Positions 3 to 60,112 of a stretch of 64,000 bases of DNA are shown here, piece by piece. Under the pieces are notes generated by a model. It ran no database searches. It was not told the origin of the DNA and saw only the letters and a program-made list of their open reading frames with translations. Each line of letters starts with the position of its first letter. Within the stretch, counting starts at the first letter, position 1. The stretch is from Candidatus Woesearchaeota archaeon (GTDB taxonomy: Archaea > Nanobdellota > Nanobdellia > Woesearchaeales > ARS49): the NCBI GenBank assembly GCA_038891615.1, contig JAWADY010000002.1, forward strand, positions 64,994 to 128,993. Reading direction: 5' to 3'. The position numbers and the translations under genes were made by a program.

Positions 3-881
3 ATGTCAAAAAACGTCTTTGCGTTTAAGAAAGCACCGCCAGAATATCCCTACTCCCCATTCCCAAAACCGCCAATATTTCCTTCTGCACCAACATACGG
101 CTATTACGGTGATATAAGTATAGTGACTGAAAAAAGACTTTCTGCGGAGCTGAGCTCATACATAGAATCAAATATCCAAAGCTGCACTGATTGGTCAAGC
201 TTTGCACAGAAAGGGATTGATGTAAAAGTTGGTAAACCATCAGCGGATGTCCTTTTTGGAGACTCTGACACAACAGTCTCGCTTAGGTGGCGAATAGAGG
301 CAAAAAGCGGCCAGGCAGAAGCGGTCATAAACAAATTTGCAGCAAGCATTCCGGTTAGAATGAAGGTTGTACGTAACTATGCTCTCGAGATAGCCTCAAA
401 TGACACCCTTTACTATGACTATGAGCCTAGCAGTGCTCCAGCAGTCCAGGTTTTCAAAAGGGTTGATGGCAAAAGCGACATAATTCAAATCACAGATACG
501 CTTTCAAAAGTTGACACAAAACCGTTTATCTTCAGGTTTGCAAGAAAGAATAGGCCTCCTGTGCTTTTCGATTCTGATATTAAATTGCGATTTAATGAAA
601 TTTTTGCTTGCCCAGGCGATGTTATAAGTTTTGATGGCAAGACATTCAAAATAACTAAACAAAATGGTGACATTCGCTTTTCTTTTGCACCAAATGCAAC
701 AGATTTTGATGAAGATTCTAGTTTATCATTTAATGTTTCTGATAGAGGTGGTGAGCCCTTTCCTTTAAGCACAACTCAGCAAATGGCAAATATTGGTAAA
801 AGAGAACTAAGAATAGAAGTCAGTGATGGTCTTGAAAAAGATTGGTATGATGCAAGCCTGACTTTAAAAACAAAATGTTAA
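3..881 (+). CDS. 5'-truncated secreted/extracellular protein of unknown function; stop overlaps the start of the giant downstream gene (ATGTTAA)
   Basis: Open frame enters from the window edge, 292 aa, no TM in the visible part. The 7-nt overlap with the 875 ATG suggests translational coupling. No recognisable family. Confidence 0.45.
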   Translation: MSKNVFAFKKAPPEYPYSPFPKPPIFPSAPTYGYYGDISIVTEKRLSAELSSYIESNIQSCTDWSSFAQKGIDVKVGKPSADVLFGDSDTTVSLRWRIEAKSGQAEAVINKFAASIPVRMKVVRNYALEIASNDTLYYDYEPSSAPAVQVFKRVDGKSDIIQITDTLSKVDTKPFIFRFARKNRPPVLFDSDIKLRFNEIFACPGDVISFDGKTFKITKQNGDIRFSFAPNATDFDEDSSLSFNVSDRGGEPFPLSTTQQMANIGKRELRIEVSDGLEKDWYDASLTLKTKC

Positions 882-3800
882 GAAAAGAAGTTATTGGAAT
901 CTTTGTAGTGCTGTTCTTCGTAGTAATTGGAATCGCGGTCATTGCACAGGAAGAAAAAACAGGTTGTTGTTGTGATGAAAATGGAACTGCAATGGATTAC
1001 AGTCCTTTCCATACCCAAAATGAGTGCACTGATCCATTCACCATTCTTGTTCCACTTTCTTCAGAAAACATAAGCAAGTATACTCCTGACAACATCTCAA
1101 AAATATGTATAGACGCTTGTGGTGGTGCAGCCCCTAAGCCTTTACCATTGCCACTTGCTCCAAAAATAACTTTTTTTAAAGCAGAACCGTTGATGGGCCA
1201 AAAGAAATTTTTGCTCACCTGGGAGATAAATCAAACACCAAATGTCATCTATATAGACAGGTGCAAAGGAAATGACTGCACTAATTTTGGCAACATTGCA
1301 ACCTTTGCTGGAACCTCAAGGTCTTATGTCGATGATGATGCAAGCCTTGAGTGGCTAACAAATTACACCTACAGGTTGAGGATTGTCAATACAATTACAA
1401 GCCCACCACAAGAATCAAGCATGACAGCATCCTCAAGCCTTGGCGACATTGAGTGCTGGAATCGATTCGACAAAACTCCTTTCTGCATTTCAGAGTACTA
1501 CTATTGGAATGAGCCTATTCAGAGCTATCTCAAGAATTTTGGCTATTTTGGTTTCAGTTTCACTGATAATTTTGCAAGACAGGTGCGGACTGTTTTTGGA
1601 GTAACAAATCTTGACCACATAGGAAAGCTCGACTCAAGATGTCATGTGGTTGGCATAAACAGACTCAGTCAGTCTTCCTCAAGGTGCAAGAGCAACGAGA
1701 CTTGCCTTGTTGTGGATTCAAACACAATCTGCATAACCCCTTCACCTTGCGATACAAGCTTTAATGCAACCTCTGCTTCTTGTGAAAACACCCCTTCAGG
1801 TACTCCAAGCTATTGTTTCTCTGATAAGAGCCAAAGTGTTATTGAGCGCTGCTACAGTTGTGATAAAAGGATGAGCTGCTATGACTATCGTTCAAAAGAG
1901 GCCTGTGAGAGGGATGCATGCGGAATTGGAGATTGTATATGGAAGCCAACTTATGGAGCAATTGGAGTTGGAGTTTGCATCAATCCTTCTCAAAACAACT
2001 GTCTGCTTTGTGACAAGAAAACAGGAGACCTTCTTTCAGGCTTGGATTCAAAAAAATGGCCTAGTCTTTTGGCTTATAATGAGCTTTTTGACGCCTGCTC
2101 ACAGCTAAAGGCAGAAGCTCTTGGCAAATGCCTTGCCGTGACAGACCCTTCAACAGGAAAAACTTCTCCAAAGACTTGCGAACAAGCAACCTGCAGCGAT
2201 TATAAAACTCAGCAAGAATGTAATGCCGACACTTGTGGGTTGGGAATATGCAAATGGTTTGACTCACCCACCTTCCGCGGCTGTGCAAAGGATGCTGACA
2301 CCCCTCCTCAAGCCCCTGCAACAGATAGTGATGGTGATGGTATTCCTGATTGGTGGGAAATCAAGTATGGTTTGAATCCTAACAATCGTGATGATGCTGG
2401 TAGTGATTCTGATGGTGATGGCTTGAGCAATTTGGATGAATGGTTGCGTGGGACCCTTCCAAACAATCCTGATAGTGATGGTGATGGTGTCTCTGATCTT
2501 AATGATAATTGCCCTGGTACTCCTTCAAACACTTTTCAAGTTGATAGCAATGGGTGCCCTCTTCCTGTTAGTGATACCACTGATTCTGATGATGATGGTA
2601 TTCCTGATTGGTGGGAAAGAAAGTATGGTTTGAATCCTAACAATCCTGCTGATGCTGGTAGTGATTCTGATGGTGATGGCTTGAGCAATTTGGATGAATG
2701 GTTGCGTGGGACTCTTCCTAACAATCCTGATAGTGATGGTGATGGTGTTTCTGATCTTAATGATCAACATCCTGGTACTCCTTCAAACACTCAAGTTGAT
2801 AGCAATGGGCGCCCACCTCAAGGCAATGGCAAGCCGGATTGCATTGATCCAAACACAGGTGAAATAGATCCTGCGTGCGAAGCAGACAAGTGGTCACCTG
2901 AAACAGTCATTATCCCTGTGGGTGACAGAGGGGCTGTAAAATACCTATACATACAAATTACTGACCAGTTCAAAAGCACAGGTGAAAAATTAACTATTGC
3001 GCACTCTGGAACTGGAACAAAGGCAGAGTACTTTCCTAAAGGCTACAGCACTTTTCTTTGCGTTGGTAGCCTTTGCTCACCAAATGTTCGTGTGAACGCA
3101 ACTCCCTTGACTGTTGTAAATGGCTTCTTGACAATAAATGGTAAGCCTCTTGGACTGCAGCTTAAGGATGGTTCCAACATCTTAAGATTCTACTCACAAG
3201 ACCCTGCAAATAATAATGAACAAGTTAAGCAGCTAGAGGTGAATGCCTGCACAGGCTGTCAGGGACCTGCTCTCATTACTCCAATTGATATCGAAGGCGC
3301 AAGAATTGTAAATGGTGAGTATTATACAAAGCTAACACAGCCGCAAATAAAGCTATCCTTTGATGCAAAGGCAGAACTTGTTTTAAAGAGGCTTGTTTTT
3401 GGCAATTCTTTTACTGAGCTTAGCTCAAGCCCACAATCCGGCTTCAGCCAAAACTACACATTACTACCTCCTGAGCTAGCAGAAGCAAAGTATGTTCTGC
3501 AAATAAATGCTCGTGGAGAAAATGGAATCTCGAGCTCTAATACGCCTTACAGCTTCAATTTGACGATAGACAAAACCCCGCCACTCCTTTCATTCAATGT
3601 TGAACAAAACAGCATCTTAGAAAACCCAGACCAGTCTTTTGTGCTTAGCTTTAATGAGCCTGTCTTTGTTACTTCCATTTTTTTCGATGAAGAGCATGTT
3701 GCTCAAAATGGTCGCAAGTATGTTTTTACAAGAAATCTAACCTCTGAACTCAAGCAAGTGAATAGCAGCAAATATAACCTAACTGTTAATGGAATTCCTG

Positions 3801-6355
3801 ATGGGCATGTTGCGCTAAGAGTTACAGCAGAGGATTATGCCGGAAATACAATGGCTTCTGTGCTAAACTTTATTATTGACTCAACAGGCCCGGTCATTTC
3901 TCTGGCACAACCACTATTCGGAATTTCTGACAAGACACCATTTGACATTGTCGTTGAAACAGACCAGCCAGCTATCTGCAGATATTCAACAATTCAAAAT
4001 GTTGACACTGCGAGCATAAGCTATGATGCAATGGCAAAGTTCTACATACCTGAAAAACAAACCGCACAGCACATCATACAAGGCTTTGACGAGCTCACAG
4101 GAAAGCCAGAAAACACGCCCTGGAGGTTCTATGTTGTTTGCAAGGATGGCAAGCAACGCCAGTCTAACGAAACCTTCTGGCTGTCCGTTGATTCTGCTCC
4201 TCCAAAAATAACAGCTGCTTATGCAGAACCAAATCCAATCGTTGAGTACACAGACAGTGAGCTGCTAACAACACTGAAAGTCTCAACAGAACGCAGCTCC
4301 TTCTGCAGTTACAGCACAACAACCACGAGCTTTAGCCCTGAAAATGGTTTTGAAGGGACAGGCATAACTCCAAGGCAAGCGCACAATGCTGTGGTTAAAA
4401 TAACCACTTCTCCGACAACTTATAACATCGCTTGCATTTCACCAACCGATTATGGCAAAGCTGCGCCAAGAACAGCAACAGCAACAATAAAAATCACTGT
4501 TGACGTTGCAGCACCACTAACCATTTCCTGCAGCTATTGCCCTTCATTCTGGAATTCTACCACAAAAAACATATACCTGACCACAAACAAGCGCGCGCAA
4601 TGCTTCTGGACACTTGACAAGACAACCACTTCTTTTGGTACAGTTGGATATGAGCACAGCACCACTCTGAAAGTGCCATCTCTTGGCGAGAAAAAAGTGC
4701 TCTTTAGCTGCAATGCAGGCGCCCAAAGTGCAACCCTTGAGTATTCATTTCTTGTAGACAACAGCCCTCCTGTAATGCTCTATGTTAGTGATAACTCAAG
4801 CCTTAAAGAAGATACAGAGCATAGCTATTTCACAGATAGGTTAAGGGCAGCATGGCTCGGGCAGGATAATGAAAGTGGAATAACACGGTATTATTACTCT
4901 TTAATCGAAAAGGCAAACAACGCTGTTGTGATAAATTGTTCACCTGGCTCTCAACAAAACAATTGCCGATTCTCAACAGTACTTGATGGAAATTTCTTTG
5001 ACATTACGCAGGACCATAATGGAAAGTCGCTCAATTTAACAGACGGCTTTAGTTATTTCTTGAAGGTTTGGCCCCTAAATAGGGTTGGTCTTCTTGGAAA
5101 TCCAATGGACTCGGATGGAGTTGTAATAAACAAAAGCAAAAAGCCAGCTCACTGCAGCGATGGAATAACAAATGAAGGCGAATCAGGGCAGGACTGTGGT
5201 GGAGAGTGCGAGCCTTGTCCTGATGGTCAGCCTTGTAGGTCTGATTCGGACTGTCTCTCAAAAACCTGTATAGAAGGTTCGTGCAAGGCTCCGAGCTGTA
5301 CAGATTTAAGAAAGAATGGTAATGAAAGCTCAATCGATTGTGGTGGGAGCTGTCCAACAAAGTGCGAAGCTGGTAAAAGTTGTAACACTGACAGCGATTG
5401 CAAAACAGGACTAAGCTGTATATCTGGTGCATGCGCAGAACCAACAGCTTGCGAGAATGGTATACTTGATGGGCTTGAAACAGACATTGACTGCGGAAGG
5501 GTTTGTCCAACAAAATGCGCAGCTGGAAAGGGCTGTCTTGATAATAAAGATTGCGCTGATGGGCTATATTGTGTTAGTGGTGTTTGTTCTTCAACAACTC
5601 CAACCGCTGATTCTGATGGTGATGGTGTCACTAATGATCTTGACCAGTGCCCAAACACTCCGAAAGGTGAAAAAGTAGATAAAAACGGTTGTTCAGCAAG
5701 CCAGCGTGACACCGATGGAGATGGCATGAATGATGCTTGGGAGATACGCTATGGCTTTGATCCTGAGAATCCTGCTGATGCTTATACAGATGTCGATGCT
5801 GATGGCCTTAGTAATCTTGAGGAATTCAAGTTAGGAACTGATCCAAGAAACCCAGATACTGATGGTGATGGTTGGAGTGATGGGGCTGAGTTCAAGGCAG
5901 GAACAGACCCTCTAGACCCTGCCTCAAAGCCATCCGCCCCTATTGTGAGAGCTTTGCCATGGCTGTTGCTTGTTGCAATCCTTGCCATAGCCGGTTACGC
6001 AGCTTACAAGTACAGGAAGCAAATTGCTGCAATTTTTGTAAGGAAAAAGGTAATTCCTTTGCCAAAGCCGCCTGTGGTGTGGAGACCGCCACCAAGGCCT
6101 GTCCAAAGAGTTGTGCGTGTTCCAACAAGAGCAGAGTTAATCATTGAACAGCTTAGAAAGATTGCCCGAGCTACAAAGGCTGAAGAAGAGGAATACATTC
6201 CTGTAGAAGAGCTTGCCAGAAGGGCAGCTGCGCTAGAGCCAACAGAAGAAGTACTTAAGCATCTAAAGGCAGCAGTAAGAAAAAGCCCTGAGTTTGCAAG
6301 GGCTGCAGCTGCCCAGCCAAAGCTCAGAGCGATGCTCAAGAAAAAATCAAAATGA
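875..6355 (+). CDS. Giant (1826 aa) membrane-anchored surface protein/adhesin with thrombospondin type-3-like Ca-binding repeats (DxDxDG), Cys-rich modules, a C-terminal TM helix and a roughly 130-aa charged cytoplasmic tail
   Basis: N-terminal hydrophobic signal/anchor (IGIFVVLFFVVIGIAVIA). Repeated DSDGDG(I/L/V)xD...WE..YGLNPNN motifs. Four roughly 43-aa 6-Cys modules (CxDGxxNGxExxxDCGGxCxxCxxGxxCxxDxDC...C..GxC). TM ALPWLLLVAILAIAGYAAY near the C-terminus, followed by a Pro-rich then helical K/E-rich tail. Confidence 0.8.
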   Translation: MLRKEVIGIFVVLFFVVIGIAVIAQEEKTGCCCDENGTAMDYSPFHTQNECTDPFTILVPLSSENISKYTPDNISKICIDACGGAAPKPLPLPLAPKITFFKAEPLMGQKKFLLTWEINQTPNVIYIDRCKGNDCTNFGNIATFAGTSRSYVDDDASLEWLTNYTYRLRIVNTITSPPQESSMTASSSLGDIECWNRFDKTPFCISEYYYWNEPIQSYLKNFGYFGFSFTDNFARQVRTVFGVTNLDHIGKLDSRCHVVGINRLSQSSSRCKSNETCLVVDSNTICITPSPCDTSFNATSASCENTPSGTPSYCFSDKSQSVIERCYSCDKRMSCYDYRSKEACERDACGIGDCIWKPTYGAIGVGVCINPSQNNCLLCDKKTGDLLSGLDSKKWPSLLAYNELFDACSQLKAEALGKCLAVTDPSTGKTSPKTCEQATCSDYKTQQECNADTCGLGICKWFDSPTFRGCAKDADTPPQAPATDSDGDGIPDWWEIKYGLNPNNRDDAGSDSDGDGLSNLDEWLRGTLPNNPDSDGDGVSDLNDNCPGTPSNTFQVDSNGCPLPVSDTTDSDDDGIPDWWERKYGLNPNNPADAGSDSDGDGLSNLDEWLRGTLPNNPDSDGDGVSDLNDQHPGTPSNTQVDSNGRPPQGNGKPDCIDPNTGEIDPACEADKWSPETVIIPVGDRGAVKYLYIQITDQFKSTGEKLTIAHSGTGTKAEYFPKGYSTFLCVGSLCSPNVRVNATPLTVVNGFLTINGKPLGLQLKDGSNILRFYSQDPANNNEQVKQLEVNACTGCQGPALITPIDIEGARIVNGEYYTKLTQPQIKLSFDAKAELVLKRLVFGNSFTELSSSPQSGFSQNYTLLPPELAEAKYVLQINARGENGISSSNTPYSFNLTIDKTPPLLSFNVEQNSILENPDQSFVLSFNEPVFVTSIFFDEEHVAQNGRKYVFTRNLTSELKQVNSSKYNLTVNGIPDGHVALRVTAEDYAGNTMASVLNFIIDSTGPVISLAQPLFGISDKTPFDIVVETDQPAICRYSTIQNVDTASISYDAMAKFYIPEKQTAQHIIQGFDELTGKPENTPWRFYVVCKDGKQRQSNETFWLSVDSAPPKITAAYAEPNPIVEYTDSELLTTLKVSTERSSFCSYSTTTTSFSPENGFEGTGITPRQAHNAVVKITTSPTTYNIACISPTDYGKAAPRTATATIKITVDVAAPLTISCSYCPSFWNSTTKNIYLTTNKRAQCFWTLDKTTTSFGTVGYEHSTTLKVPSLGEKKVLFSCNAGAQSATLEYSFLVDNSPPVMLYVSDNSSLKEDTEHSYFTDRLRAAWLGQDNESGITRYYYSLIEKANNAVVINCSPGSQQNNCRFSTVLDGNFFDITQDHNGKSLNLTDGFSYFLKVWPLNRVGLLGNPMDSDGVVINKSKKPAHCSDGITNEGESGQDCGGECEPCPDGQPCRSDSDCLSKTCIEGSCKAPSCTDLRKNGNESSIDCGGSCPTKCEAGKSCNTDSDCKTGLSCISGACAEPTACENGILDGLETDIDCGRVCPTKCAAGKGCLDNKDCADGLYCVSGVCSSTTPTADSDGDGVTNDLDQCPNTPKGEKVDKNGCSASQRDTDGDGMNDAWEIRYGFDPENPADAYTDVDADGLSNLEEFKLGTDPRNPDTDGDGWSDGAEFKAGTDPLDPASKPSAPIVRALPWLLLVAILAIAGYAAYKYRKQIAAIFVRKKVIPLPKPPVVWRPPPRPVQRVVRVPTRAELIIEQLRKIARATKAEEEEYIPVEELARRAAALEPTEEVLKHLKAAVRKSPEFARAAAAQPKLRAMLKKKSK
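2324..2830 (+). repeat. Near-perfect tandem duplication (2 x 258 bp) inside the giant surface-protein gene, encoding two almost identical 86-aa TSP3-like units
   Basis: DNA units starting at about 2324 and about 2582 are nearly identical (gattctgatggtgatggcttgagcaatttggatgaatggttgcgtggga... in both). The protein units differ at only a few residues. Confidence 0.85.
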
Positions 6356-13508: not shown

Positions 13509-14225
13509 ATGAGCCTGCTCATTGTCAGAAGGAAGGGAATAACAGAAACAGGATTAGTGGCAATAATCCTTGTCCTTGCCTCTGGCATTGTTCTTGGAGC
13601 TCTTGTCTATCAGTTTACTGTTAAGGGGAAGCAGGTTGGCTCTATCGAGCTTTGCAGACAGAATGTGCTAACTGCTAGCAAAGTTGTAGCGCTTGGCAAA
13701 GCAGATATTTGGCCAATCACCAACTGCTTTACAGAAGACCTTGGCAAACTTCCAGAAAAAGAAGAAGAAGCCATTACTCTGATTGCCGAGGGTATTAGGA
13801 AGTGCTGGTACATGTGGGGCGAAGGAAAGCTAACTCCATGGAGCTCTACATGGCTATCAAGAAACATCATGTGTCATGTTTGTACGATGTTTGAGCCAAG
13901 CGCAGAAGTGAGTATTGAAAAGCTTCATGGTTGGATGAGGACTCACAACATTCCTGGCAAAGAATTAACCTACTATGACTTTTTGAAAGAAGGCTACATC
14001 CCTTTCATCTATCCAGCACTTGAAGAAGAAGCCAAAGCCAAAAAAGTTGACCTCACAAAAGGAATGAAATGGGCTGTCTTTTATGCCTATGGAACGCGCG
14101 CGGATTGGCTAAGATTTCCCCTCATTGGTGGACTTGTGCTTGAAGAACCAAAACAAGGCGTTGCCTTCCTGCCGACAAATGAACTCGGAGGCATATGTAC
14201 ATATACTACGATAAAACTCAAATGA
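13509..14225 (+). CDS. Pilin-like protein (238 aa) with class III signal peptide and a Cys-containing globular domain
   Basis: MSLLIVRRKG|ITETGLVAIILVLASGIVLGALVY. Shares CW..WGEGKL...CHVC motifs with the next gene, so the two are paralogs. Confidence 0.6.
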   Translation: MSLLIVRRKGITETGLVAIILVLASGIVLGALVYQFTVKGKQVGSIELCRQNVLTASKVVALGKADIWPITNCFTEDLGKLPEKEEEAITLIAEGIRKCWYMWGEGKLTPWSSTWLSRNIMCHVCTMFEPSAEVSIEKLHGWMRTHNIPGKELTYYDFLKEGYIPFIYPALEEEAKAKKVDLTKGMKWAVFYAYGTRADWLRFPLIGGLVLEEPKQGVAFLPTNELGGICTYTTIKLK

Positions 14226-15145
14226 AAAGGGCGCAAGTAACAACACAGACACTCTTGGTAGTGCTCGTGCTTTTACTCGTAGCAGCTGTCATCTTTATTT
14301 CTTTTCAGACAAGACTCTTTGGCTTAGCAGAAGCCAAAAGTGCAAAGGATGTTTGCAAAACTTCTGTCTATGCCAATGCGCTGCTTGGAAGAAGTGTTGG
14401 AATCTTTTCTTCGGATATAAAATGTCCAACTCAGTATCTTCAGATAGACAATAGTGATGTTGCACATGCAAAGTTTGAGATTGCAAAAGCTCTGTCAGAT
14501 TGTTGGGAACAATTTGGAGAAGGCAGGCTTGAGCTTTTTTCTGGAGAAGGTGTTTTTTGTTCCGTATGTCATTTGATAACTTTTAAGCACAAAGAAAAAG
14601 CAATAAGCGGGCTTTTAGACTATCTTGCAACTAACAAAAAACCCCTTACTGACAAAAGCTATCTTGATTATCTAACAAGCTATCACACTTCAGGAAGCGA
14701 GGTTCTTAAGGCATATGCAGCTGAAAAGCTCCCGCCTGACATTCTTGACCCATCGCGAGGCAACACCTATGCAACAATCTTCTACTATGTCAAGGGTAAA
14801 GACCATGTGAAGGATGTTATTGAAAGAGCCCAAGCAGCAGCACCTGGCATTGGGCTTGAAGCACTTGGTATCGGATTGATAAAGGCAGGCAGTGCAACAG
14901 CTGGCTTGATTTCAGCAACCGGCATTGGTGCGCCTCTAGGTGTAGTTGTTGCAAAGGTCTCAACAATTGTCGGCGGAGTTTTGATTGTTGGCGGAGCAGG
15001 CTATGCCCTCCTCGCTGGTTGGTTCGGCGGAGTCCCTGTAGAATTCCTCTCACAAGTACGCCTCGAGCCTTACAACGAGCAAACGCTTAAAAACCTCGGA
15101 TGCCAAATCCTGCCTGCAGCTGAAAAAGCAGAGGTTGGAAGGTGA
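14222..15145 (+). CDS. Pilin-like protein (about 307 aa), paralog of 13509, with a C-terminal Gly/Ala-rich hydrophobic segment
   Basis: Start ATG overlaps the upstream stop (aATGA). MKRA|QVTTQTLLVVLVLLLVAAVIFISF. Motifs CWEQFGEGRL / CSVCHL match the upstream paralog. Confidence 0.6.
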   Translation: MKRAQVTTQTLLVVLVLLLVAAVIFISFQTRLFGLAEAKSAKDVCKTSVYANALLGRSVGIFSSDIKCPTQYLQIDNSDVAHAKFEIAKALSDCWEQFGEGRLELFSGEGVFCSVCHLITFKHKEKAISGLLDYLATNKKPLTDKSYLDYLTSYHTSGSEVLKAYAAEKLPPDILDPSRGNTYATIFYYVKGKDHVKDVIERAQAAAPGIGLEALGIGLIKAGSATAGLISATGIGAPLGVVVAKVSTIVGGVLIVGGAGYALLAGWFGGVPVEFLSQVRLEPYNEQTLKNLGCQILPAAEKAEVGR

Positions 15146-15279
15146 TGAAAAAAGGCATATCCCGCGAGGCATTTGTTTACATACTCTTGGCACTTATTGC
15201 AATCCTCATTGGAGTAATCTTGATAATTTTTTGGGGAGGCGGGGCAGAAAAGGTCCTTAAGTCTCTTGGTTTGGGATAG
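15145..15279 (+). CDS. Mini pilin-like protein (44 aa), essentially only a class III signal peptide plus TM helix
   Basis: Absent from the ORF track (<60 aa). TGATG overlap with the upstream stop. MKKG|ISREAFVYILLALIAILIGVILIIFWGGG. Confidence 0.4.
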   Translation: MKKGISREAFVYILLALIAILIGVILIIFWGGGAEKVLKSLGLG

Positions 15280-15284
15280 CTCAA

Positions 15285-15641
15285 ATGGACAAAAAAGCTG
15301 TTGCAATAGAAACAATAGTCATCCTTCTCCTTGCACTTGTTGCTCTCCTTTTCTTTACAGTCCTTGGAGGAAAGCAGCTTCAATTGGGCAAGAAAATAAG
15401 CTTTTTCATGCCGGGCTGCCCAAAGGGTGTTTTAATAACCACAGAATGTCCATGTGATGGCCAAAAGATAAGTTCAGGTTATTGCTGTGATTTTGGACCA
15501 AGCCAAAAGCCTTGCTTTTGCGTAGAGCGAAATGTTAATAAGTGCGAGGATTACAAAAAGCAAGAGGATTGTGTAAGCAATCCTTGCCAAGTTCAAACTG
15601 CTTGCACCTTTGAACAAGGTGTTTGCAAAAGGGCTGGTTAA
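15285..15641 (+). CDS. Pilin-like protein (118 aa) with an extremely Cys-rich C-terminal domain
   Basis: MDKKA|VAIETIVILLLALVALLFFTVLGG. 16 Cys in the last 80 aa (CPKG...CPCDG...YCCDFG...CFCVERN...). Confidence 0.6.
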   Translation: MDKKAVAIETIVILLLALVALLFFTVLGGKQLQLGKKISFFMPGCPKGVLITTECPCDGQKISSGYCCDFGPSQKPCFCVERNVNKCEDYKKQEDCVSNPCQVQTACTFEQGVCKRAG

Positions 15642-15645
15642 ATAA

Positions 15646-16071
15646 ATGGCAAAAAAAGGGGTAAGTGGAATACAGGTCGTCATAGCACTTTTGATTGGCA
15701 TCATAGTGCTCTATGTTGTTGTGGCTTTTATGCAAGCACAGTTCAAGAAGGCTGGAAAGAGTATCGAGGAAATAACTCCTTCCACAATCAGCTTTGCGCT
15801 GCAAGGCTGCAGGCTCCAAGCCGCACGAGGTTTTTCTGATGCAGATAAGGATGGATATCCCGACTTTTGTGATGTCTGCGAAGGCGGTGATGACGGAAAG
15901 CACAGCGATGCTGACTGGGTTCCAGATGATTGTGATGCGCATGAAAAAACAAAAGGGCTTCCTGCAAAGGAATGTGGTTGTGAAAAGCCAGAAATGGATT
16001 CTGAAGGCAGGCTGATAAAGAGCTGTGGGAGGCTTCTTTCAATCGAGCCATTTAAGTGCGCGAAAAAATGA
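15646..16071 (+). CDS. Pilin-like protein (141 aa) with Asp/Cys-rich (Ca-binding-like) C-terminal domain
   Basis: MAKKG|VSGIQVVIALLIGIIVLYVVVAF. C-terminus: DADKDGYPDFCDVCEGGDDGKHSDADWVPDDCD. Confidence 0.6.
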   Translation: MAKKGVSGIQVVIALLIGIIVLYVVVAFMQAQFKKAGKSIEEITPSTISFALQGCRLQAARGFSDADKDGYPDFCDVCEGGDDGKHSDADWVPDDCDAHEKTKGLPAKECGCEKPEMDSEGRLIKSCGRLLSIEPFKCAKK

Positions 16072-16088
16072 ATTTGGTAAAATGAAAA

Positions 16089-16949
16089 ATGAGCAAAAGG
16101 AAAGGCCAGGAAGAAGTTGGAAGGATGCTTTGGGAACTTGTTGCGCTGATACTGGCAGTAACTGTTATCATTGGAGGGATATTGTTTTTTGGAAGGGCAT
16201 TTGGATTTATTGGTGAGAGCAAAGAGGAACAGGACACAATCTCAAGCTTTTACAGCCTTGCAACAAAACTAAACGAACTGGCGCTGCTTTCAGAGTCATT
16301 CGTTCATGACAGGCTACCACTTTTTATTGGGGAAGGATTTGTAATTGTTGGCTTTGACAAAGCTGGAGATATTTCTGTCAATGGTTGCAGCGATGAAACA
16401 CATCTTGGAGTTCCAGCTACTGACCTCATCCCAAAGCCAGAGTTCTGTGGCGAGTTTGCTTGCATATGCCTCTATTCTGGCATTAGCGAAGAAGTCGGCG
16501 AGAAGCAGCCAATTTCTTGTGCCAAAATTTTCGCTGACAGATTGATTGGCTTGAGTAGTGCGTATCTTGAAAAAAACTATCCCTCTTTTGAGTCTTTTTG
16601 GAAAAACGCAATGGGCTCTCGTAGGGATAAGCCAGAACTACAAAGGTTCATGGTAACAGGGACAGAGCCTTTTAGCACTCTTCTCGAAAAAGACTATCCT
16701 CTTTTCCCAAGCTTTGAAAGCTACCCCTATACCTATTTTGTTCTTCATGGTGAGTGTGAAAACTGGTGGTTTGATGCCAACTTTGGCACACAAAGCCTCT
16801 ATCTTGAAAAAGTGAGGATAAAAGACAGGAACTATTTATTTATCACCGCAGACATCGAGGACTTTGTAAACAAAAGGGTTGCTGCAATAAAGGATTGGCT
16901 AGAGAAGCAAAAGAGTCAAGAGAAAGCCGAGGGAGGGCTGGTTGGTTGA
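16089..16949 (+). CDS. Pilin-like protein (286 aa)
   Basis: MSKRKG|QEEVGRMLWELVALILAVTVIIGGILFFG. Basic N-terminus, Q at +1, a single N-terminal hydrophobic helix. Confidence 0.55.
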   Translation: MSKRKGQEEVGRMLWELVALILAVTVIIGGILFFGRAFGFIGESKEEQDTISSFYSLATKLNELALLSESFVHDRLPLFIGEGFVIVGFDKAGDISVNGCSDETHLGVPATDLIPKPEFCGEFACICLYSGISEEVGEKQPISCAKIFADRLIGLSSAYLEKNYPSFESFWKNAMGSRRDKPELQRFMVTGTEPFSTLLEKDYPLFPSFESYPYTYFVLHGECENWWFDANFGTQSLYLEKVRIKDRNYLFITADIEDFVNKRVAAIKDWLEKQKSQEKAEGGLVG

Positions 16950-17784
16950 AATGGTTGTGATTGGCAAGCGAGCCGTTGTTCATCCAGTTGCTCTGACAAT
17001 TGCAGAGCTTATTTTAGCCGCAATTATTGTCCTTGCAATGTACAATTTTGCCTCAAGGGCAAGAGAGCCTGGAAGGCTTGAAAAAGAGTTTGTTGCAAAA
17101 GACCTTGGCTTGCTGCTTGACGCCGTTTCCGTTGGCCAAGGGAGTTACTATTTGGTTTACACATCACCAGCCCTTCATCAAGATTTCAAGATTTCTGCAG
17201 GCGCCCACGAGGTTGTTGTTGATGGCTCAAGGCAGCCCTACGCATCTGGGCGTATAGAAATAAAAGGAGATTCCTTTGGAACAGATAAACTTGTGATCTG
17301 GTCTGAAACTGGAATTCTTGGCACGCCTTCAGCAGTCAAAGGTCACCTGCTACAGCTTCCTTGCGAAAGCCCACTGTCTTTTTCAACTGATAGGCAGCTT
17401 GCGGTAGCTGCTGATGATGGTGCCAAACAACTTGTTGAAAGACTTTTTGTCAAGGACTTAGGGAAAAGGCTGTTGTCAAATGATGAGAAAGGCGCAAGTG
17501 CGCTATTAAAAATTTTCACAGGAACAAAAAATGGGACAGCGAAGGCATATTTTTGGAAGGATGATAAGTCAGCAAGGTCGCTTGCATGCGCCCTTTTGAA
17601 CAGCATTGTCGCTTTTGAAGGAACCAATTCAGCCCTTCTTCTTCCGCTTAATCCTGAGCTTGCACCAAAGCGTTTTGCAGAGCTTGAGAAACAAAAGCCA
17701 GCTGTCTTCCTCGAGCTAGGCCCAGACCTTATTTCAAGCCCTGAACTTGCTCAGGCACTTTATGGTGGTGTTCGAAGTGGCTGA
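16942..17784 (+). CDS. Pilin-like protein (280 aa)
   Basis: ...VIGKRA|VVHPVALTIAELILAAIIVLAMYNF. Overlaps the upstream gene by 8 nt. Confidence 0.5.
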   Translation: MVEMVVIGKRAVVHPVALTIAELILAAIIVLAMYNFASRAREPGRLEKEFVAKDLGLLLDAVSVGQGSYYLVYTSPALHQDFKISAGAHEVVVDGSRQPYASGRIEIKGDSFGTDKLVIWSETGILGTPSAVKGHLLQLPCESPLSFSTDRQLAVAADDGAKQLVERLFVKDLGKRLLSNDEKGASALLKIFTGTKNGTAKAYFWKDDKSARSLACALLNSIVAFEGTNSALLLPLNPELAPKRFAELEKQKPAVFLELGPDLISSPELAQALYGGVRSG

Positions 17785-18325
17785 AAGGCAACAAGCAAAC
17801 ATTTTTAGCAAAAAGGCTCAACTCCTTAGCCATCACACAAAATTTCTTTTCATAAGCCTTCCATTTGTTATTATCTCCGCTCTTGCGTTGTTTCTTCTCG
17901 CAAACAGGTTTCTTGAAATAAGAGTAAATACCTTTCCCCTCGAGGCAAACGCATTTGTTGAAAGCATACTCTACTCATCTGCTGGGCTGGCTTATGTTGA
18001 CAATGTAACCGGGATTACCTATTCTGGAATCATAGACATCACAAAACTTGAAGAAAAGGACATTGGAAAAAGGTTGTCTAAGGCTTTTAACTATGGTGAA
18101 GGGCAAAGTTACCTTGCAGCAAAGCTTCTGATTGGTGATAGGACAATTTTCTATAACAACGAACCAGAAGCACCTTGGTATGACCGCTGGAAACCAAAGG
18201 TTGGGCTCAAGGGTGCTGGCGGAGTGCAATCGGTTACTTTTGTTAAATATGTGCTCATCAAAAATGGAAGTATGTTAGAACCTGCAACCGTTTACATAGA
18301 GTTGCTCAAGCCTGGTGAGGGCTAA
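17747..18325 (+). CDS. Pilin-like protein (about 180-190 aa); start codon uncertain, possibly an internal GTG
   Basis: ...FSKKA|QLLSHHTKFLFISLPFVIISALALFLLAN. The single N-terminal hydrophobic helix follows a KKA|Q motif. No in-frame ATG after the upstream stop, so a non-ATG start is likely. Confidence 0.45.
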   Translation: MLRHFMVVFEVAERQQANIFSKKAQLLSHHTKFLFISLPFVIISALALFLLANRFLEIRVNTFPLEANAFVESILYSSAGLAYVDNVTGITYSGIIDITKLEEKDIGKRLSKAFNYGEGQSYLAAKLLIGDRTIFYNNEPEAPWYDRWKPKVGLKGAGGVQSVTFVKYVLIKNGSMLEPATVYIELLKPGEG

Positions 18326-18900
18326 TGGTAATAAATGGAAGAAAAGGCGTTGTTGGGGAGCTATTAGTTGCATTTCTCTCTTTTGCAGGCCTTGCTCTTA
18401 CAATCCTACTCTTCACTTTCATATTCTCTCCAGCAGACTTTCCTGGTCCTCAAACTTTGACCGTGCTTAATGAAGGAGAAACAGATGGCAAACTTAGACT
18501 GCTGACCATTCTTCGCTCACCAGTTGTTTTTGATGGGGAGAAAATAGATTTTGCAGACATGATTGCACTTTGGCAAGGAAAGCAAGAGCCGCTCGAAAGC
18601 ATTCTTCACTCAGAGCTTGAAAAGCTGCTTAATAACAAGCTAAGTTATGAGTTCGAGCATGCTGGTGTCAAATTTGTGCGCACTTATGCTTTTGCCATTT
18701 ATAGCATAAAAGACGATTTAAGTCGTGGCAAAGAACTAATGAAAGTAGAGGCAAGCGGCTATTCAGGAGGTAAAGAAATAGCCTCAACTCATGTTGCATT
18801 AAAGGATGGCAATGTGCTTGAGGTTGTGCTATTTTCAAGCGCGCAAAAAAAGCCATCCAAAACTCCTGTTTCGAGCGCTTCATCCATACCTATAAAATAA
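18325..18900 (+). CDS. Pilin-like protein (191 aa)
   Basis: MVINGRKG|VVGELLVAFLSFAGLALTILLFTFIF. Start overlaps the upstream stop. Confidence 0.5.
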   Translation: MVINGRKGVVGELLVAFLSFAGLALTILLFTFIFSPADFPGPQTLTVLNEGETDGKLRLLTILRSPVVFDGEKIDFADMIALWQGKQEPLESILHSELEKLLNNKLSYEFEHAGVKFVRTYAFAIYSIKDDLSRGKELMKVEASGYSGGKEIASTHVALKDGNVLEVVLFSSAQKKPSKTPVSSASSIPIK

Positions 18901-18901
18901 A

Positions 18902-19870
18902 ATGGTCAAATCAAACAAACGCGCAACAATCTTTTTTGAACCACTAATACTTTTGGGGTTAATCGTTGCTCTTAGCATCGCAGCTATTTCTGTTAGCCAA
19001 AAAAGGTCCTCTTTTGGAACAATTGGCAGACCAGCTGCTGACCTTCTTAATTACAATGACTTTGGTGAAGAACTTCTTTTTAAGGTTGAACAAGCAGCGA
19101 GGTTTGCAGTTCGCGATGCGCTTTATGAGTTGGGTGCAAATGGTTGGAGTGCTGAAGGTCCAAACTTAGGTTGTGATAGCCAGCCAATTGGCAAGCCTTT
19201 GCTTATCGAGAGCTTTCCTACACCACAGGAGATTGTTGAAGAACTAACAAAAATTTCTGATAGGAAGCTTAGGGCTTATTCGCTCAGGGCTTCGCAGCTC
19301 CTTGGTCTTGGGAGGTTGGGCTTCCACTTGCCAACAGGTATTGAATATGAGTGGTTTGTTGAGCACTCTGGTGGGCTGTTGAGAGTGAGTGGCATTGCTG
19401 ACAAGCCAGTTACCTTCTCATTTAGCTCATACGAGGTAGGTAAACCAACACTCTACGGCCAGCCGCTGCCACTGCCAACTGCTTCAGTTGTTTTTATTCC
19501 TCTTGAACGTCCAAAACAGCCAGAAGCCCTGCTCTTGCTTTATGGCAATTATTCGATAAGGCCGTCCTTCACAGTCTGGATAGATTACGACCTTTTCGGC
19601 GTCTATGAAAGAATAAAAGAAGGCGTTGAGCAACTCAAAACAATCATTCAGGAAAACAGGGCTCTTGGTTTTGAGGTGACAGACCTGGCGCTCAAAAACA
19701 AAGTCAAGGAGCTGAATTCTGCGCAGGGAGAGCTTGTTTGGCAAGTCCCTAAGAGGACAAGTGAAGATCCGGCTATCTACTCTTTTGTTATTTCTCATAA
19801 GAAGCAGCTTTTAGGATGCAGTCAGCCTATTCAAATAAGGTTTGCGATGAGAATTCCATTAGCTGCTTGA
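18902..19870 (+). CDS. Pilin-like protein (322 aa)
   Basis: MVKSNKRA|TIFFEPLILLGLIVALSIAAISV. Lies 1 nt after the upstream stop. Confidence 0.5.
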   Translation: MVKSNKRATIFFEPLILLGLIVALSIAAISVSQKRSSFGTIGRPAADLLNYNDFGEELLFKVEQAARFAVRDALYELGANGWSAEGPNLGCDSQPIGKPLLIESFPTPQEIVEELTKISDRKLRAYSLRASQLLGLGRLGFHLPTGIEYEWFVEHSGGLLRVSGIADKPVTFSFSSYEVGKPTLYGQPLPLPTASVVFIPLERPKQPEALLLLYGNYSIRPSFTVWIDYDLFGVYERIKEGVEQLKTIIQENRALGFEVTDLALKNKVKELNSAQGELVWQVPKRTSEDPAIYSFVISHKKQLLGCSQPIQIRFAMRIPLAA

Positions 19871-46736: not shown

Positions 46737-47123
46737 TCAAGAATCACTGCCTTTTTTTCTCATACGCTCAAAAGTCGCAGCGATATCAATTATGTACTTC
46801 CCATCAGCAACTTTAAATATCAATGGCTCATTTTTAAAAAGCCTTACGAGGTCTAGTTCGTACTTTCCTGGCTTCAGAACATTAATGCTCTCCAAGTCAA
46901 GCACAACTGGTTTTTCTGGCTCTTCAAGTCCTATAATTTTGAAGATGTCAGATTCGATTTCTTTCTTTTCCTTTTCTGAAAGAGGGCTCGCTGGCCCTTC
47001 TGGTTGCTTCAGCTTTTCTTTCTTTATGAAAAAGAAAAGCTTCCCACCACAGGAACAACCCTTTAGTATCGCAGAAGAGCCATCATCGTAGAACGTATTG
47101 CACCGTACGCATTGGTGTGGCAT
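46737..47123 (-). CDS. Zn-ribbon protein (CxxC...CxCGG), third member of a conserved archaeal GTPase-associated trio
   Basis: MPHQCVRCNTFYDDGSSAILKGCSCGGKLFFF N-terminal zinc ribbon. Confidence 0.5.
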   Translation of the reverse strand: MPHQCVRCNTFYDDGSSAILKGCSCGGKLFFFIKKEKLKQPEGPASPLSEKEKKEIESDIFKIIGLEEPEKPVVLDLESINVLKPGKYELDLVRLFKNEPLIFKVADGKYIIDIAATFERMRKKGSDS

Positions 47124-47126
47124 TTG

Positions 47127-47507
47127 CTATCTTTTTTTCCTCTTTTCTTGTGTAAAAAGTTCAATTTTGTGAGGGTCTTTCTTTATCTTCTTGACTATGC
47201 TGGCTGGCCCGATTATGGTCATTCCCTGCCTGTTTCCCAAAAGAAAGCTAAGGACGTTTTCGCGGAATTTCTTAATTCCTGAGAAGTTGCCTTGTTGAGG
47301 ATTTATAACTGCAAGCTCTATCCCTTTGAAATCCTTATTTATCTCTTCCATTGTTGCTTTTATAAGTTCAGCCTCTTCGTCCTTCGATAATCTCCCCTGA
47401 AAAAGAACTATCTTGTCTTCTTTTGCGACATTTAACAACTTTCTTATTCTTCCAACAGAGCTAAGCTGTTCAAGCTCACTATATGGAATGAATTGCAGGG
47501 TCACCAT
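47127..47507 (-). CDS. Conserved hypothetical protein (126 aa) between the small GTPase and the Zn-ribbon protein
   Basis: Tightly packed (1-3 nt spacers) with both neighbours on the same strand. No motif recognised. Confidence 0.45.
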   Translation of the reverse strand: MVTLQFIPYSELEQLSSVGRIRKLLNVAKEDKIVLFQGRLSKDEEAELIKATMEEINKDFKGIELAVINPQQGNFSGIKKFRENVLSFLLGNRQGMTIIGPASIVKKIKKDPHKIELFTQEKRKKR

Positions 47508-56875: not shown

Positions 56876-56959
56876 GCCTCCGTAGCTCAGTAGTGGAGCG
56901 ACTGCCTTGTATCTGTGCAAGAAAGCAGTAGGTCAGGGGTGCGAATCCCCTCGGAGGCT
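56876..56959 (+). tRNA. tRNA-Thr (anticodon UGU) with a 12-nt intron after position 37
   Basis: Acceptor GCCTCCG/CGGAGGC, D-arm GCTC-AGTAGTG-GAGC, anticodon stem ACTGC/GCAGT with loop CTTGTA[TCTGTGCAAGAA]A, T-arm AGGGG-TGCGAAT-CCCCT. 84 nt against 72 without the intron. Confidence 0.55.
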
Positions 56960-59895: not shown

Positions 59896-59927
59896 GATGC
59901 TCCCTCTCGAATGTAATTAAAGGCAAA

Positions 59928-60032
59928 CGCGCCCGGGAGGATTTGAACCCCCGATCTCCAGGTTAGGAACCTGTCGCTCTATTTGTCCGAGCAGAAAAGT
60001 GCTTTCTGCCCACCAGACTGAGCTACGGGCGC
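59928..60032 (-). tRNA. tRNA-Arg (anticodon CCU) with a roughly 31-nt non-canonical intron in the D-loop
   Basis: Reverse complement: GCGCCCG-TA-GCTC-AGTCTGGT[GGGCAGAAAGCACTTTTCTGCTCGGACAAAT]A-GAGC-G-ACAGG-TTCCTAA-CCTGG-AGATC-GGGGG-TTCAAAT-CCTCC-CGGGCGC-G. All arms pair. The insert folds as hairpin GCAGAAAG/CTTTTCTGC. Confidence 0.65.
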
Positions 60033-60112
60033 ATTGAAAGGAAAGCTCTTTTAGTGTTTTTAAATATTCTCACCAGCTGTCAGTGCCTTCTTAGCCCTTG
60101 CCAAATAGCTGC

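Follow-up and report, generated by a model that had tools for sequence, protein, structure and literature searches.

[quoted passage not shown] An earlier reading of the letters (the sequence-only reading) had placed a tRNA-Arg(CCU) with a D-loop insert at 59928-60032; the gene is present there, on the minus strand, and all four of its stems are intact. Its features are listed below, and a caret marks a predicted cleavage site here and throughout the text.

60057..60067, minus strand: TATA-box-like element ATATTTAAAAA, 25-35 nt upstream of the mature 5' end, putative promoter
59928..60032, minus strand: whole tRNA-Arg(CCU) gene, a 105-nt precursor body without encoded CCA; the 5' part reads GCGCCCG UA GCUC AGUCUGG, followed by the intron UGGGCAGAAAGCACUUUUCUGCUCGGACAA, and the 3' part reads AUA GAGC G ACAGG UUCCUAA CCUGG AGAUC GGGGG UUCAAAU CCUCC CGGGCGC G
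60013..60032, minus strand: 5' exon (precursor 1-20), with the acceptor 5' strand, U8 A9, D-stem GCUC and D-loop A14-G19, placed by BHB enumeration and by the orthologue D-loop AGTCTGG^ATA
60015..60018, minus strand: BHB central helix H, 5' strand, G15 U16 C17 U17a
60012..60014, minus strand: 5' bulge G18 G19^U, predicted 5' cleavage after G19
59983..60012, minus strand: predicted 30-nt intron UGGGCAGAAAGCACUUUUCUGCUCGGACAA (UGGGCAG...GGACAA), Sprinzl 19/20, between G19 and A20
59989..60011, minus strand: intron hairpin h', 9-10 bp, GGGCAGAAA(G)/(U)UUUCUGCUC, with a 5-nt loop at the 9-bp count
59985..59988, minus strand: BHB central helix H, 3' strand, GGAC, the last paired nucleotides of the intron
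59982..59984, minus strand: 3' bulge A A^A20, predicted 3' cleavage before A20
59928..59982, minus strand: 3' exon (precursor 51-105), with A20 U20a A21, the D-stem 3' strand, anticodon arm, variable loop, T-arm, acceptor 3' strand and G73
59965..59967, minus strand: anticodon CCU (AGG on the plus strand)
59915..59927, minus strand: T-rich stretch UUUGCCUUUAAUU directly after G73, putative terminator

The acceptor stem GCGCCCG/CGGGCGC forms 7/7 pairs and is followed by G73, the D-stem GCUC/GAGC forms 4/4 pairs, and the T-arm GGGGG-UUCAAAU-CCUCC forms 5/5 pairs, one of them G.U. The anticodon arm ACAGG-UUCCUAA-CCUGG has four of five stem pairs and a 7-nt loop, U33-CCU-A37. Its top pair, A27.G43 (window 59977 and 59961, Sprinzl 27 and 43), is a purine-purine mismatch; the mismatch is swapped to G27.A43 in the L001 and L137 orthologue, and many other homologues have A27:U43. 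In the precursor the two D-stem strands are separated by 40 nt, compared with 8-11 normally, and the MFE fold is a cloverleaf with a 10-bp D-loop hairpin (z = -4.4 against 200 shuffles). Two independent assemblies, the NCBI MAG GCA_038896715.1 (JAWACO010000001.1) and a Logan assembly of SRR27730024, contain an identical 105-nt gene, and the gene is thus not an assembly artefact.

The gene had been expected to be hard for standard finders, and this was borne out for the two that were run. ARAGORN made no call for it on the window, and the Rfam tRNA model scored 27.8 bits, under the 29-bit cut-off, in a partial alignment (positions 10-63) that borrows a chance GCUC within the insert as a spurious D-arm. 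Placing the intron within this repeated GCUC, the reading behind the Rfam alignment, gives no convincing BHB and a poor D-loop, GGACAAAUA, and was rejected. Also rejected was the tRNA-Leu(taa) reported by the ARAGORN intron option on the precursor, which is spurious and has a distorted structure. Self-splicing group I introns are longer than 200 nt, have a catalytic core and usually lie in the anticodon loop; the present insert is 30 nt long, lies in the D-loop and has no Rfam intron match.

The tRNA-Arg(CCU) gene has GatD, GatE, TruD (Pus13-type), adenylate kinase (ADK) and thymidylate kinase as neighbours. The window TruD is 100% identical to a protein annotated 'Candidatus Woesearchaeota archaeon', and its homologues are from Woesearchaeota. 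Judged by GatD/GatE and this Woesearchaeota-annotated TruD, the host is archaeal and belongs to Woesearchaeota (DPANN). The GC content is ∼42-43%. Elsewhere in the window, adjacent genes at 46737-47507 (minus strand) match Pfam OapC and OapB (origin-associated proteins), and a chromosomal replication origin may lie near them. The window also holds a very long ORF of 1826 aa at 875-6355 (plus strand) and a run of consecutive ORFs at 14195-19870 (plus strand); five ORFs of this run (14195-15145 and 16089-19870) were scanned and gave no Pfam match at E ≤ 1e-4.

Boxes of the TTTAAAWA type lie upstream of most homologues of the tRNA-Arg(CCU) gene, at about the distance of the TATA-like element in the window (for example in L001, L035, L193 and L238), and we therefore infer that the gene has its own TATA-box promoter. 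Among the homologue upstream regions inspected, no such box was apparent in L137 or L004. T-runs follow G73 at the corresponding place in several homologues.

Intron boundaries were read with the geometry of the canonical archaeal motif: the end of the 4-bp helix H lies 2 nt ahead of both the 5' and the 3' cut, and the two 3-nt bulges are each cleaved after their second nucleotide. The rule was checked by reading the canonical 37/38 intron of a second gene in the window, tRNA-Thr(UGU), where H is CUUG/CAAG and the bulges are UA^U and AA^A. An enumeration of all BHBs that the tRNA-Arg(CCU) precursor can form then gave three adjacent registers, with cuts after precursor positions 20 and 50 (20/50), 21 and 49 (21/49) or 22 and 48 (22/48). 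The 20/50 register forms a strict BHB, with 4/4 pairs in H (G15:C, U16:A, C17:G, U17a.G), both 3-nt bulges and an h' of 9-10 bp. The exon-side helix h consists of a single pair, A14:U20a, followed by a 1-nt bulge and the D-stem; it is minimal and weaker than the textbook h, and the motif is not a textbook hBHBh'. The 20/50 conformer has a free energy of -44.4 kcal/mol, compared with -46.8 for the MFE fold and -38.6 for the 22/48 conformer. When the intron was shuffled in 200,000 trials, a strict BHB at 20/50 arose in 0.18%, and never together with an h' of ≥9 bp. The strict BHB at the true junction is far beyond chance. The spliced 20/50 product is 75 nt long, has the D-loop AGUCUGGAUA and is called tRNA-Arg(cct) by ARAGORN.

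Folding the exon-intron junctions in search of a BHB, the check proposed in the sequence-only reading, thus locates the motif at 19/20. The core of the proposal holds: the gene is interrupted in the D-loop, at a non-canonical site, by an intron of archaeal type and about 30 nt. An endonuclease of relaxed specificity, previously thought to be required, is not needed; the motif has its 4-bp helix and both of its 3-nt bulges.

The arrangement GatD-GatE-tRNA-TruD-ADK is conserved among relatives, and these serve as an independent check on the junction. L001 and L002 (TruD 54% identical) have an intron-less tRNA-Arg(CCU) at the syntenic place, and its D-loop, AGTCTGGATA, is exactly that of the window 20/50 product. 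The spliced window tRNA and the intron-less L001 gene are identical at 71/75 positions; of the four differences, two are compensatory changes in one acceptor pair. The tRNA-Arg gene of L004 and L005 is likewise intron-less. L137 (TruD 53% identical) shares the GatE-tRNA-TruD-ADK synteny of the window; its exons are identical to the L001 gene at 75/75 positions and carry a 39-nt homologous intron at the 19/20 site, the ends of which (AGGGCA...GCUCGGACAA) resemble those of the window intron. Close relatives with identical exons and the intron present or absent should be useful for studies of intron gain and loss. At the L001 locus, a second copy of the 3' end of the intron-less tRNA-Arg (CCCGGGTGCGTAG) lies ∼100 nt downstream (1838-1850 and 1954-1966), and on sequence grounds the pair resembles an att-type direct repeat of the sort that a small insertion or integration at this gene would leave.

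The sequence-only reading had taken out 31 nt (GGGCAG...ACAAAT) at positions 20/21, leaving the D-loop AGUCUGGUA, and this placement is almost certainly wrong. The 31-mer does exist, at precursor 22-52, ARAGORN still calls the product tRNA-Arg(cct), and 20/21 is a published intron site (PMC4090602). Its cuts, after 21 and after 52, form no BHB, however: the central helix would be UCUG/ACAA, with 1/4 pairs. The resulting D-loop is unlike that of the intron-less orthologues (AGTCTGGATA), with a U in place of A20, and 33/33 homologues among the matches listed fit the 19/20 junction. Shifting the 5' cut 1 nt and the 3' cut 2 nt corrects the intron to 30 nt at 19/20. It had also been stated that a cloverleaf is recovered only when the 31-mer is removed; cuts at 20/50, 21/49 and 21/52 each yield an ARAGORN-callable tRNA-Arg(CCU), so removing the 31-mer is not the sole route to it.

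Splicing might instead use one of the two neighbouring registers. They can be drawn because the pairing between D-loop and intron extends to 6 bp: 21/49 implies a 28-nt intron and a 12-nt D-loop, 22/48 a 26-nt intron and a 14-nt D-loop. Both have a 4/4 central helix and an h' of 8-9 bp, and the 21/49 product is ARAGORN-callable. They are nevertheless very unlikely. The D-loops that they predict, AGUCUGGUAAUA or AGUCUGGUGAAAUA, occur in no orthologue, and neither does the D-loop of the 31-nt junction. The 22/48 conformer is 5.8 kcal/mol less stable than 20/50 and its product is not recognised by ARAGORN, and in L040, L045 and L081 the helix h pair forms solely with a 5' cut after 20 (h = 1, against 0 with a cut after 21 or 22), giving AGCUUGG^AUA. 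It is only through the comparison with orthologues that 21/49 and 22/48 are rejected. As far as sequence comparison goes, BHB geometry and orthologues together select 20/50, that is, 30 nt at Sprinzl 19/20.

The 19/20 junction recurs widely. When GTDB species genomes were scanned by pattern for tRNAs carrying an insert in the D-loop, at least 83 cloverleaf-consistent matches were obtained; among those listed are tRNA-Arg(CCU/UCU), tRNA-Lys(UUU) and tRNA-Phe(GAA) genes from Woesearchaeota and other DPANN, whose BHB introns follow G18G19. The tRNA-Lys(UUU) and tRNA-Phe(GAA) introns at the same position belong to other Woesearchaeota, including the complete AR20 genome. Inserts at other D-loop positions (15/16, 18/19, 20/21 and others) were found in Thermoproteota, Nitrososphaerota and other groups among the matches listed. 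A metagenome scan specific for Arg(CCU) brought the total to at least 92 distinct tRNA-Arg genes with a D-loop insert. At least 33 distinct tRNA-Arg(CCU/UCU) genes, the window gene included (examples are L137, L131, L238, L045 and L081), have the junction GG^N ... AA^A-UA in common and give the product AGYYUGGAUA, with introns of 21-44 nt and differing hairpin sequences.

Covariation in this family follows the predicted motif. An alignment of the junctions of the 33 genes (A1), from which the variable intron middle was removed, has 97.3% of its cells paired, compared with 74% when shuffled and 30-45% with slid partners. Compensatory changes affect 5/5 proximal pairs of h' and 2/4 pairs of H, where GCUU/AAGC, GUCU/GGAC, GCCU/GGGC and GGAC/GUCU are all found. 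Among the matches listed, the GG^N 5' bulge is kept in 33/33 genes and the A14:U pair of helix h in 30/33. The 3' bulge is AA^A in most (columns 36-37 of A1 are ≥90% A and column 38 is an invariant A), and GG^A in L127 and L189. In 15/33 of the homologues listed, a U-U mismatch occupies the third pair position of H, so the 19/20 family tolerates a relaxed helix. Because the 3' cut of each homologue had been chosen by its BHB score, the selection was repeated on shuffled inserts; 0.15% of these trials produced a strict BHB at the site. Of the real genes among the matches listed, 18/33 have a strict BHB and 32/33 have at least 3/4 H pairs with an h' of ≥3 bp.

The insert might instead be retained, either in a decaying pseudogene or in a tRNA with a permanently expanded D-loop hairpin, and both are extremely unlikely. 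Neither EndA nor RtcB was found among the 40 of 67 window ORFs that were scanned against Pfam, and the missing endonuclease gene would suit a retained insert. All four cloverleaf stems are intact, however, most homologues have a promoter-like box upstream, and the tRNA elbow would be disrupted if a hairpin kept G18/G19 sequestered. The insert varies in length (about 15-46 nt) and sequence, and covariation is confined to the parts that form the BHB. It sits at a single syntenic tRNA-Arg(CCU) locus that in relatives is filled by an intron-less gene.

In the favoured explanation, the precursor would be transcribed from its own TATA-box promoter with the 30 nt in place between G19 and A20. G15-U17a would pair with the intron GGAC to form the 4-bp central helix, flanked by the bulges G18-G19^U and A-A^A20, by the 9-10-bp intron hairpin and, on the exon side, by A14:U20a and the D-stem. 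EndA would cleave each bulge behind its second nucleotide, which places the cuts after G19 and before A20, and would leave a 2',3'-cyclic phosphate and a 5'-OH. An RtcB-type ligase would then join the exons into the 75-nt tRNA with the D-loop AGUCUGGAUA. A20, a major arginine identity element in the systems studied, is the first nucleotide of the 3' exon. Until splicing, G18/G19 would be bulged and A20 held in the BHB, so that, on general knowledge of tRNAs, the precursor could neither form the D/T-loop elbow nor be charged.

A search of the window for further intron copies, which would point to mobility, gave only chance 10-11-mers. By eye the intron contains no C/D-box (UGAUGA ... CUGA), and a guide-RNA role is unsupported.

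The 19/20 intron could also be an old, vertically inherited feature of Woesearchaeota tRNA-Arg/Lys/Phe that was kept for a function and lost precisely in L001-like relatives. We consider this unlikely. Possible functions would be gating of the D/T elbow and of A20 exposure, or shielding of the gene from integrative elements that target tRNAs. If this were true, a DPANN-specific intron class would be systematically under-annotated, because the BHB models of tRNAscan-SE 2.0 were trained on Crenarchaeota/Euryarchaeota and Thaumarchaeota (PMC8450103). The archaeal mode of the same program seeks non-canonical BHB introns by default (PMC8450103).

A second group of tRNA-Arg(CCU) introns lies two nucleotides downstream, at 20a/21, with the junction AGCUUGGAU^A ... 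CCAA AN^A, H = UUGG/CCAA and bulges AU^A and AN^A. It was found in metagenomes and Woesearchaeota (L125, L126, L128, L168, L169, L188, L208, L220 and others). Some of these genes also adjoin GatE, so the same tRNA has two D-loop intron sites in different Woesearchaeota. A thaumarchaeal group of tRNA-Arg genes with D-loop inserts differs from both the 19/20 and the 20a/21 groups.

Two further kinds of tRNA genes were observed. The tRNA-Thr(UGU) gene at window 56876-56959 (plus strand), with its 12-nt intron, scored 57.7 bits with Rfam and was not called by ARAGORN. U55 is near-universal in tRNAs and GG is usual in the D-loop; this gene has G at position 55 (T-loop UGCGAAU) and a D-loop, AGUAGUG, without GG. 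Its orthologue in L001 (4444-4556) and L137 (5147-5259) is 113 nt long, which implies a larger insert, and the L001 copy also has G55 (T-loop UGCAACU). The other is a conserved bacterial tRNA-like gene of 96-97 nt with good acceptor, anticodon (UUC) and T stems, seen at L020 5517-5613 and in similar form at L041, L043, L062, L068, L076, L087, L093, L098, L100, L102 and L115, mostly in Solirubrobacterales MAGs and in one labelled uncultured Actinomycetes. Its D-loop is a GC-rich hairpin (AGUGGUCAACGGGUCCYUYCGGGGGCCCAAA). ARAGORN is inconsistent on it, calling a 73-nt tRNA-Glu(ttc) at one locus and a 96-nt tRNA-Pro(ggg) at others. BHB splicing is not known from bacteria and so would not account for this hairpin.

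For annotation, the value of the window gene is practical: both ARAGORN and the Rfam model miss it, and with the intron unrecognised the genome seems to have no tRNA for AGG codons. Introns at 19/20 recur in the tRNA-Arg, tRNA-Lys and tRNA-Phe genes of Woesearchaeota. Existing knowledge of archaeal tRNA splicing is left unchanged by a D-loop intron at this site.

Non-canonical BHB introns in the D-loop are well established, and reviews name 20/21, 22/23 and others; 19/20 is not named among the D-loop positions in the accessible reviews, where the list is open-ended (PMC4090602). Their cleavage by EndA is documented (PMC4090602, PMC5829648, PMC6379350). Strict and relaxed motifs occur in D-loops, T-loops and acceptor stems, and enzymes of broad specificity are needed for the relaxed ones only (PMC6379350). 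DPANN with an alpha4-type EndA carrying the L3 loop have many disrupted tRNA genes (PMC5829648). The window intron is of the ordinary archaeal BHB type, a well-known kind that is common in its lineage.

Among D-loop introns, those of Methanopyrus kandleri tRNA-Glu(UUC), at 20b/21, and Aeropyrum pernix tRNA-Thr(UGU) have been studied biochemically (PMC5829648) and are the nearest known systems (PMC3241643, PMC5829648). Like them, the window intron is predicted to be a protein-spliced D-loop intron, with a BHB-type motif built from D-loop and intron nucleotides, and its removal would restore a normal D-loop. It differs in its position (19/20), in its DPANN (Woesearchaeota) host and in having both 3-nt bulges, and it is predicted from sequence. 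The M. kandleri intron has a relaxed HBh' motif that needs a broad-specificity enzyme, in contrast to the strict BHB found here. With the canonical 37/38 intron the window intron shares the 4-bp helix, the two 3-nt bulges and the predicted cuts after the second bulge nucleotide, and presumably the enzymes. The helix partner is D-loop 15-17a rather than anticodon-loop 32-35, and the part disrupted in the precursor would be the D/T elbow, whereas in canonical 37/38 precursors it is the anticodon loop.
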